A stretch of DNA of 64,000 bases from the NCBI RefSeq assembly GCF_056746865.1, contig NZ_CM163382.1; one strand, 5' to 3'. The position numbers and the translations under genes were made by a program. The notes below the pieces were generated by a model that was not told the DNA's origin, made no database searches, and saw only the letters and a list, made by a program, of their open reading frames with translations. Positions 1 through 37,713 of the stretch are shown here, piece after piece (within the stretch, counting starts at the first letter, position 1; every line of letters starts with the position of its first letter).

Positions 1-309
<309 letters not shown>

Positions 310-926: not shown

Positions 927-977
927 ATGACGCTCCTGCGTAATGAATCAAAGATAATGCTGTATGATAAAAAAATG

Positions 978-993
978 CTGGATAGATATCCAG
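978..993. promoter_or_regulatory. LexA (SOS) operator of the ruvAB promoter, palindrome CTGGATAGATATCCAG
   Basis: Perfect 16-bp palindrome CTGG-N8-CCAG about 50 bp upstream of the ruvA start; matches the non-canonical CTGG variant reported for the ruvAB SOS box. Confidence 0.7.
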
Positions 994-1200
994 CGAAGGA
1001 TGAAGAAAACTTGCGAGGCGTCCCGATGATCTGAAAAATGGCGCAGTAGAATTTTTTCTACAGGTTATATTGGAAGCAAATATTTAAATATTACATATTC
1101 AGCGAAGAAATGCGTAATAAAAATACATATTGCGCCTCCTGAAAAAATAAATTTTTTATGCTATTACGTATATTCGTATCTATTTCAATGGAATGACAAT

Positions 1201-1803
1201 GTGAATATTAATTATCCTGCTGAATATGAAATTGGTGATATCGTCTTTACATGTATAGGTGCTGCCTTATTTGGTCAAATATCAGCTGCATCAAATTGCT
1301 GGAGTAATCACGTCGGGATCATTATCGGTCATAACGGTGAAGACTTCATGGTTGCAGAAAGCCGGGTTCCCCTTTCAACCATCACCACGCTATCTCGTTT
1401 TATTAAACGTTCTTCTAATCAACGCTATGCTATAAAGCGATTAGACGCCGGGCTTACAGAACAACAAAAACAACGAATTGTTGAACAGGTTCCCTCCCGG
1501 CTACGCAAACTTTACCACACCGGTTTTAAATACGAATCTTCGCGCCAGTTCTGTTCAAAATTTGTTTTTGATATTTATAAAAAAGCGCTATGTATTCCGG
1601 TGGGTGAAATAGAGACGTTTGGAGAATTGTTAAATAGCAATCCGAATGCAAAACTCACTTTCTGGAAATTCTGGTTCTTAGGTTCTATTCCGTGGGAGCG
1701 TAAAACCGTCACGCCAGCCAGTTTGTGGCATCATCCGGGTTTGGTGTTGATTCATGCGGAGGGAGTGGAAACGCCTCAGCCGGAACTGACCGAGGCGGTA
1801 TAA
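1201..1803 (+). CDS. yebB: YebB, uncharacterised DUF830-type protein (200 aa), GTG start
   Basis: ORF track 1201..1803; visibly AT-rich relative to flanking ruv genes; sits between ruvA and ruvC as in K-12. Confidence 0.85.
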
Positions 1804-1804
1804 C

Positions 1805-2326
1805 TTAACGCAGTCGCCCTCTCGCCAGGTTCAGCCGCGATTCGCTCATCTGCATCGCATTCTGACTGACGTGACAATGGGTAATCGCGATAGCTAACGC
1901 ATCGGCGGCGTCCGCCTGTGGATTAGCGGGCAGTTTCAGCAAGGTGCGGACCATATGCTGCACCTGGCTTTTTTCAGCACTACCAATACCTACCACCGTT
2001 TGCTTTACCTGACGTGCCGCATATTCAAATACCGGCAATTCCTGATTCACCGCCGCCACAATCGCCACGCCGCGTGCCTGCCCCAGTTTCAGGGCTGAGT
2101 CAGCGTTCTTCGCCATAAAGACTTGTTCAATGGCGAAATAATCAGGCTGGAACTGGGTAATGATTTCCGTCACGCCCGCATAGATGAGCTTCAGACGAGA
2201 CGGTAAATCATCCACTTTGGTGCGTATGCATCCGCTACCCAGGTAGGACAATTGCCTGCCTACCTGGCGGATGACGCCATAGCCGGTCACGCGCGAACCC
2301 GGGTCAATGCCGAGAATAATAGCCAT
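1805..2326 (-). CDS. ruvC: Holliday junction resolvase RuvC (173 aa)
   Basis: ORF 1805..2329 begins [18 protein letters not shown]...; second Met taken as start to match the known 173-aa length. Confidence 0.93.
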
Positions 2327-2360: not shown

Positions 2361-3101
2361 TCAGAGAGTCGCTGCAACCTCATCAGAGATTTCACCGTTA
2401 TGGTAGACTTCCTGCACGTCGTCGCAATCTTCCAGCATATCGATCAGACGCATCAGTTTCGGTGCGGTTTCTGCATCCATATCAGCTTTGGTGGACGGGA
2501 TCATGGAAACTTCCGCGCTGTCTGCTTTCAGACCTGCCGCTTCCAGAGCGTCGCGCACTTTACCCATTTCTTCCCATGCAGTGTAGACATCAATTGCGCC
2601 GTCATCATAGGTCACAACGTCTTCAGCACCTGCTTCCAGCGCTGCTTCCATGATGGTGTCTTCATCGCCTTTCTCGAAGGAGATCACGCCTTTTTTGCTG
2701 AACAGATAAGCTACGGAACCATCAGTACCGAGGTTACCGCCACATTTACTGAATGCATGGCGCACTTCAGCAACGGTACGGTTGCGGTTGTCAGACAGAC
2801 ATTCAATCATGATTGCCGTGCCGCCAGGACCGTAACCTTCGTAGATGATGGTTTCCATGTTTGCATCATCATCACCGCCCACACCACGTGCGATTGCGCG
2901 GTTCAGAGTGTCACGGGTCATGTTGTTAGACAATGCTTTATCAATTGCTGCACGCAGACGCGGGTTAGCGTCCGGATCGCCACCGCCCAGCTTAGCCGCG
3001 GTTACCAGCTCACGAATGATTTTAGTGAAGATTTTACCGCGCTTAGCATCCTGCGCAGCTTTACGATGTCTGGTGTTGGCCCATTTACTATGACCTGCCA
3101 T
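2361..3101 (-). CDS. yebC: YebC/PmpR family transcriptional regulator (246 aa)
   Basis: ORF 2361..3101; [27 protein letters not shown]... signature of the YebC family. Confidence 0.95.
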
Positions 3102-3129
3102 AAAAATATCTCCAGATAGCCCTGCCTGT

Positions 3130-3582
3130 TCAGGCAGCGTTAATTACAAACTGTTCAATCGCCTGCCGGTTGCTCCAGGACTTAGTGAGCGCCGCCGCAG
3201 CAGGCGCATCAAGCCACTTGTAAGCCAGATGTTCAGTGAAAACGATCTGCCGCTCGTGCGGAAGCGCAAGACAGAACCATGATTCCGTATTACGCGTCAC
3301 GCCCGGCGCATAGCGATGACGTAAATGTGAAAAAATTTCAAACTCTACCGTGCGCTGACAGTCAATTAAGGTCAGTTGTTCAGCGACAACATCAATGGTG
3401 ACCTCTTCCTTTACTTCGCGCATGGCAGCTTGCGGCGCGGTTTCACCCTCTTCCACGCTGCCGGTTACCGACTGCCAGAAATCGGGATCGTCACGCCGCT
3501 GCAACATCAGCACCCGTTTCGTATCTTGTGCGTAGATGACCACTAAGATCGAAACGGGACGCTTATACACTTTATCCTTCAC
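3130..3582 (-). CDS. nudB: Dihydroneopterin triphosphate pyrophosphatase NudB (150 aa), GTG start
   Basis: ORF 3130..3639 contains a Nudix box ([20 protein letters not shown]); start placed at internal GTG (plus-strand cac at 3580-3582) giving the known 150-aa protein MKDKVYKRP... Confidence 0.88.
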
Positions 3583-3699
3583 GCTGCCTCTTCGTTGACT
3601 GCCTTCGCTCATCCCATTCACATAGTTATCTATGCTCATGGGAGTTCACTCAGTTGCCGCCTCGATGCAACGCGAATGATTTCGTGTATTTGAGTCATA

Positions 3700-32190: not shown

Positions 32191-32252
32191 GAATGTTGCG
32201 CCTCACCGTATCAGTTAAACAGCCTGTACTCTCTGTTCATCCAGCAGTTGTG
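32158..32252 (-). ncRNA. motR: Candidate MotR sRNA (sigma-28-dependent, from the motA 5' UTR)
   Basis: Sigma-28 promoter at 32259-32285 inside the flhC 3' end and intrinsic terminator at 32158-32190 before motA delimit a roughly 95-nt transcript, as described for MotR. Ends not verified. Confidence 0.4.

Positions 32253-34360: not shown

Positions 34361-37713
<3,353 letters not shown>

Follow-up and report, generated by a model that had tools for sequence, protein, structure and literature searches.

The ruvAB operon belongs to the LexA regulon of Escherichia coli (PMC6590174). Relief of LexA repression induces the operon, and ruvC lies outside SOS regulation (PMC4080785). That review cites Benson 1988, Shinagawa 1988 and Shurvinton & Lloyd 1982 for the SOS boxes of the ruvAB promoter and for the LexA-dependent induction. 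SOS induction raises ruvA and ruvB by a log2 of about 1-1.6 (PMC11002266), and in Vibrio cholerae ruvA is up 4.7 fold and ruvB 4.1 fold (PMC5963079).

The closest described element is the published E. coli ruvAB SOS box CGCTGGATATCTATCCAGCA, contained in the 25-mer LexA motif instance for ruvA in Table 4 of PMC3009722. The 25-mer is identical letter for letter to the site studied here, and sequence, gene and position all agree, so that the two are one and the same, seen in a second E. coli strain. Of the 18 boxes in the published set, that of cho (ydjQ), CACTGGATAGATAACCAGCA, is the only one besides ruvA in which each half reads CTGG. The core of the cho box, CTGGATAGATAACCAG, is one base different from the plus-strand 16-mer of our sequence, and the box scores 19.8 bits against about 18.7 for ruvA. 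The cho box is unlike the ruvA site in that it serves a different gene, has no 7+7 palindrome, and is not followed by a T-run in the printed 25-mer. The boxes of recN, dinI, uvrD, uvrB and dinB have one CCAG half, and that of dinG has one TTGG half. These resemble the ruvA box in having G after CTG, but unlike the ruvA site they all keep the consensus CTGT in the other half. Fernandez de Henestrosa et al. 2000 reportedly give the ruvAB box a heterology index of about 9.2.

We conclude from its sequence and position that the site is almost certainly the LexA operator (SOS box) for ruvAB in E. coli, bound by a LexA dimer at its two CTGGAT half-sites. This operator is already known, indeed a textbook site, and its identification adds nothing on the regulation of the SOS response in E. 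coli.

Genomic setting of the operator

The sequence analysed (the window) comprises 64,000 nucleotides of an E. coli chromosome. Of 5426 complete E. coli genomes, 5425 have a match to bases 700-1400. The RefSeq annotation around the site comprises ruvB, ruvA, yobI, yebB, ruvC and yebC. The regulated gene, ruvA, is encoded on the minus strand at 315-926 with a GTG start at 926-924, preceded by a Shine-Dalgarno sequence AGGAG at 933-937 (minus strand). The second gene of the operon, ruvB, is represented by its 5′ part (1-306, minus strand) and extends beyond the window. Between ruvA and yebB, the latter being on the plus strand at 1201-1803, is a spacer of 274 nt, and this contains the operator.

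The 16-mer CTGGATAGATATCCAG occupies positions 978-993 exactly as given in the original prediction, and reads TTCGCTGGATATCTATCCAGCATTT on the ruvA strand. In this orientation the operator core CTGGATATCTATCCAG (978-993, minus strand) has the form CTG-N10-CAG. Both CTG/CAG triplets are intact, and seven of the ten inner nucleotides are A or T. In the usual 20-bp form the SOS box is at 976-995 (minus strand). The placement upstream of ruvA was correctly predicted: the 16-mer precedes the GTG of ruvA by 51 nt, and the -35 element of the promoter lies inside the box. The assignment as a LexA operator serving ruvAB likewise agrees with the published ruvA box and with the membership of ruvAB in the LexA regulon. 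By contrast, the site is not perfectly symmetric as had been claimed. Two 7-bp arms, CTGGATA and TATCCAG, flank a non-palindromic GA, so that the 16-mer and its reverse complement are mismatched at positions 8 and 9.

Comparison with published LexA boxes

A symmetrised LexA matrix was constructed from the 17 other boxes in Table 4 of PMC3009722, with the ruvA box excluded. Scored in this leave-one-out manner the ruvA 20-mer has 18.8 bits (range 18.7-18.9), and is the top match in the 64 kb; the runner-up has 11.2 bits, 7.6 bits lower. The probability of such a score is 2.3e-7 per position, corresponding to 0.015 matches expected by chance in 64 kb. The next-best matches to the matrix, TACTCTCTGTTCATCCAGCA at 32227-32246 and TTCTGTCTGGAAACCCAGCA at 35222-35241, have about 11 bits each. 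They are probably noise, because chance alone should yield about 0.7 such matches in 64 kb.

The original prediction had regarded the box as weak and non-canonical, deviating from the consensus at the most conserved positions. Within the 36 published half-sites the C, T and G positions carry 1.8-2.0 bits each, and the base following CTG carries 1.15 bits, being T in 26 and G in 10. At least one CTGG half is found in 8 of the 18 published operators, with two in cho. G after CTG is thus a tolerated and common minority variant of LexA half-sites, judged from these counts. The supposed deviation at the most conserved positions is therefore unsupported; CTG and CAG are intact, G is a minority variant, and exchange of both G/C for T/A would gain only 3.3 bits. 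Under leave-one-out scoring the ruvA box ranks 12th of the 18. It is a moderate operator and an ordinary member of its class, neither an outlier nor overlooked.

It had also been suggested that strict consensus searches would miss the site. This is true of the literal string CTGT-N8-ACAG, which fails on the ruvA box, as it does on seven more of the published boxes, but the site comes first in the window when a matrix is used. The ruvA site can therefore serve as a calibration: consensus strings overlook around half of the real LexA boxes, and a simple matrix finds this one easily.

Two further candidates close to the operator were considered and rejected. A second SOS box, TACTGCGCCATTTTTCAGAT on the ruvA strand (20-mer at 1029-1048, with CTG-N10-CAG at 1031-1046), has a score of -9.4 bits, and in another strain of the E. 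coli group the CTG is missing. A half-site CTGTAT at 960-965 (20-mer at 958-977) scores 6.7-7.0 bits, and the corresponding ATACAG after the -10 element is unconserved in other genera.

Conservation in the Enterobacterales

The relatives returned by a search with the RuvA protein were all at least 79% identical. Scanning genomes with RuvA gave 80 species of Enterobacteriaceae, 78 of which had enough upstream DNA, and in all 78 the best match to the LexA matrix is CTGGAT-N4-ATCCAG. The same element is present upstream of ruvA in 83 of 83 sequences, those with sufficient DNA ahead of the gene, from five families of Enterobacterales. These include Serratia, Providencia, Pantoea and Pectobacterium, where the gene order is yebC-ruvC-ruvA-ruvB. 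The arms are fixed, and the central four bases vary (ATCT, GTTT, ATTT, AAAT, AAAC, ATGT and ATTC). Invariant arms around four variable central nucleotides are the footprint expected of a site for a dimer. Within E. coli itself, 4856 genomes show an identity of at least 99% over the 60 nt around the site.

Among the 78 species the 20-mer ends 47-52 nt ahead of the GTG of ruvA, and 175 nt ahead of it in two that have an insertion downstream of the box; for CTGGAT-N4-ATCCAG the distance to the ruvA start is 47-54 nt in nearly all of the 79 sequences from Enterobacteriaceae. The other conserved blocks in the alignment of these 79 sequences are a run of six or seven T, TAT-N-AT and the ribosome site CAGGAGC, and the remainder of the spacer diverges.

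These data bear on whether the palindrome could be a functionless chance occurrence in AT-rich intergenic DNA. CTG-N10-CAG occurs 22 times in the window (13.7 ± 3.8 expected) and CTGG-N8-CCAG twice (0.68 expected), so neither pattern is significantly enriched, as such a reading would have it. Since these patterns are not rare, a regular expression alone is weak evidence. The matrix score argues otherwise, with its expectation of 0.015 in the window falling to 0.0003 in the 274-nt spacer at the base composition of the spacer itself. Moreover, the arms are invariant in 83 sequences while the neighbouring non-coding DNA diverges. This conservation refutes a chance origin, to which we attach a virtually negligible probability.

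Some loci carry insertions. In Pseudenterobacter timonensis and Enterobacter sp. RIT418 (L040 and L077) around 125 nt are inserted between the box and the ruvA start, containing GTAAGCTCCTGGGGATTCAC, a sequence that we take to resemble the core of the ERIC repeat. In Pectobacterium atrosepticum (L082, 1262-1503) the ruvC-ruvA spacer has a shortened copy of the element, GGCTGGATATTCATCC, right after ruvC, and the full TGCTGGATATTCATCCAGCC about 125 nt further on, with a highly structured insert between them. The sequence suggests that a small mobile element inserted in the palindrome with duplication of the target.

Overlap with the ruvAB promoter

A promoter scan of 850-1300 identified a single sigma-70-like promoter, TGGATA-17-TATCAT. 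The identical sequence is given for ruvAB in a genomic SELEX study of RpoD (PMC3946193). The -35 hexamer TGGATA (987-992, minus strand) is inside the operator, and the -10 hexamer TATCAT (964-969, minus strand) corresponds to the TAT-N-AT block that is conserved across species. The -35 hexamer is inside the box in Salmonella too, in the same arrangement. A run of seven T at 969-975 (minus strand) forms part of the promoter spacer, and six or seven T are found here in nearly all species.

From the position of the hexamers we infer that ruvAB transcription starts near 957. The operator would then span roughly -36 to -21, and cover most of the spacer as well as the -35 hexamer. LexA bound to the operator would occupy both, and RNA polymerase would thus be excluded by promoter occlusion. 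Following DNA damage, RecA-stimulated self-cleavage of LexA would free the promoter, and expression of ruvAB would rise modestly, by about 2-3 fold.

An E. coli ruvA promoter reporter was biphasic after UV and was set aside as an outlier; the authors invoked an alternative sigma factor for its second, late peak (PMC5999292). In Salmonella ruvA is not one of those loci that nalidixic acid upregulated, and the discussion of that study places it among genes with SOS-independent basal expression (PMC8072944). On the reporter and Salmonella data the control that LexA exerts over ruvA seems to be leaky or composite.

The late peak might be taken to indicate that the palindrome serves a dimeric regulator other than LexA, or is a structural element of the DNA, and that its likeness to a LexA box is incidental. 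The SELEX table of PMC3946193 also marks the ruvA-yobI spacer for H-NS. We consider this very unlikely. The site has every sequence feature of a LexA box and has been published as one, ruvAB is damage-inducible in both E. coli and Vibrio, and no other motif was identified. Both strands of 850-1300 were also searched against Rfam; no family was found, the only match being sub-threshold, to a snoRNA with E = 0.82.

A possible terminator within the same element

LexA binding may not be the sole function of the palindrome. Together with the T-run, it might act in the RNA as a Rho-independent terminator alongside its function as operator, stopping transcripts of yebC-ruvC and insulating the SOS-controlled ruvAB from constitutive read-through. 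We regard this as plausible, yet somewhat short of probable. The predicted RNA hairpin GCUGGAU-AUCU-AUCCAGC (977-994, minus strand) has a stem of 7 bp and a 4-nt loop, with an energy of -10.6 kcal/mol and z = -5.8, and the T-run that could provide its U-tract begins one base past the stem. A terminator scan of the E. coli sequence flags the palindrome, with its 7-bp stem and 4-nt loop followed by A and then T7. The corresponding scan in Salmonella gives a stem of 10 pairs, five of them G:C, with a 4-nt loop and an adjoining T-run, located 9 nt past the ruvC stop; its energy is -16.1 kcal/mol. In neither species does any shuffled sequence fold equally well. It should be noted, however, that any palindromic operator will fold when transcribed.

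The genes that lie upstream provide a comparison. In 58 of the 83 sequences an ORF of at least 100 codons on the same strand ends no more than 30 nt upstream of the element; this is mostly RuvC, with a usual gap of 12 nt. The stem is extended to 9-10 bp (AGGCTGGAT/ATCCAGCCT) in 50 of these 58, with six or seven T directly after it, compared with 1 of the 25 loci that have no such ORF, E. coli among them (Fisher p = 5e-13, uncorrected for shared ancestry). Since the species are related, such counts overstate the number of independent events, and shorter stems at loci with insertions could simply reflect the places where the insertions landed. The T-run moreover doubles as promoter spacer, and is retained at loci with nothing to terminate.

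With the G:C pairs that flank the core in the longer stem, the LexA score drops to 14.9 bits from 18.8, so that LexA is not the reason for these pairs. In addition, the right arm lies outside the -35 hexamer and yet is as invariant as the left, even at positions that vary among LexA boxes. SOS-independent basal expression of ruvA in Salmonella would fit partial read-through from ruvC, and both this and the biphasic E. coli reporter are compatible with read-through.

The data for E. coli are less favourable to termination at this position. Neither ruvA nor yobI is assigned a 3′ end in the Term-seq tables of PMC7815308, and the 3′ end of ruvC falls inside yebB on the antisense strand, about 55 nt into the gene and after a hairpin GCCTCGGTCAGTTCCGGCTGAGGC. 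In the window only yobI, without an ATG, is upstream of the palindrome on the same strand, about 70 nt away. Its ATG is replaced by ATA and its -10 element is weaker, so that little transcription may arrive from upstream for a terminator to act on. With both yebB and yobI between ruvC and ruvA, the element in E. coli would be at most a weakened remnant, for transcripts from the yobI side.

In most Enterobacterales the element is like a Rho-independent terminator in having a G:C-containing stem of 7-10 bp, a 4-nt loop and U6-7, a few nt past a stop codon on the same strand. It is unlike one in being embedded in a promoter and operator, and in E. coli in having no well-supported gene directly upstream. 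A literature search for a ruvC terminator overlapping the ruvA SOS box found nothing relevant.

If the palindrome does act as a terminator, the positions G4 and C13 of the box would be fixed because LexA half-site, -35 G and the G:C pairs of the stem overlap. We tentatively propose, as a scheme that is credible rather than favoured, that across the Enterobacterales a single element of 30 nt would combine the operator for LexA, the ruvAB -35 hexamer (the G of which is position 4 of the box) and the stem of the ruvC terminator, hence the fixed G/C. Where an insertion of the yebB type displaced ruvC, E. coli being such a case, the outer pairs would have been lost, and the box would have drifted toward a better match to LexA. 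If true, this would be a compact case of insulation between adjacent operons that are differently regulated, and would show that some operator positions can be frozen for reasons unrelated to the repressor.

Neighbouring genes

The small-protein gene yobI, annotated in K-12, lies at 1065-1130 on the minus strand of the window. Its start codon is ATA instead of ATG, both here and in a further Escherichia genome (L002), and the -10 element assigned to it in PMC3946193 as TACAAA reads TACGAA in the window. From these changes yobI may be decaying, or may be mis-called, in this lineage.

The genes yebB (plus strand, stop at 1803) and ruvC (minus strand, stop at 1805) are convergent, with a single base between their stop codons (window 1745-1805). 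Further along, CTGCCTGTTCAGGCAG is a perfect 16-bp palindrome at 3122-3137, lying over the predicted start of a nudB-like ORF (3130-3639, minus strand) and just upstream of yebC (2361-3101). It fits CTG-N10-CAG, but is rich in G:C and unlike a LexA box.
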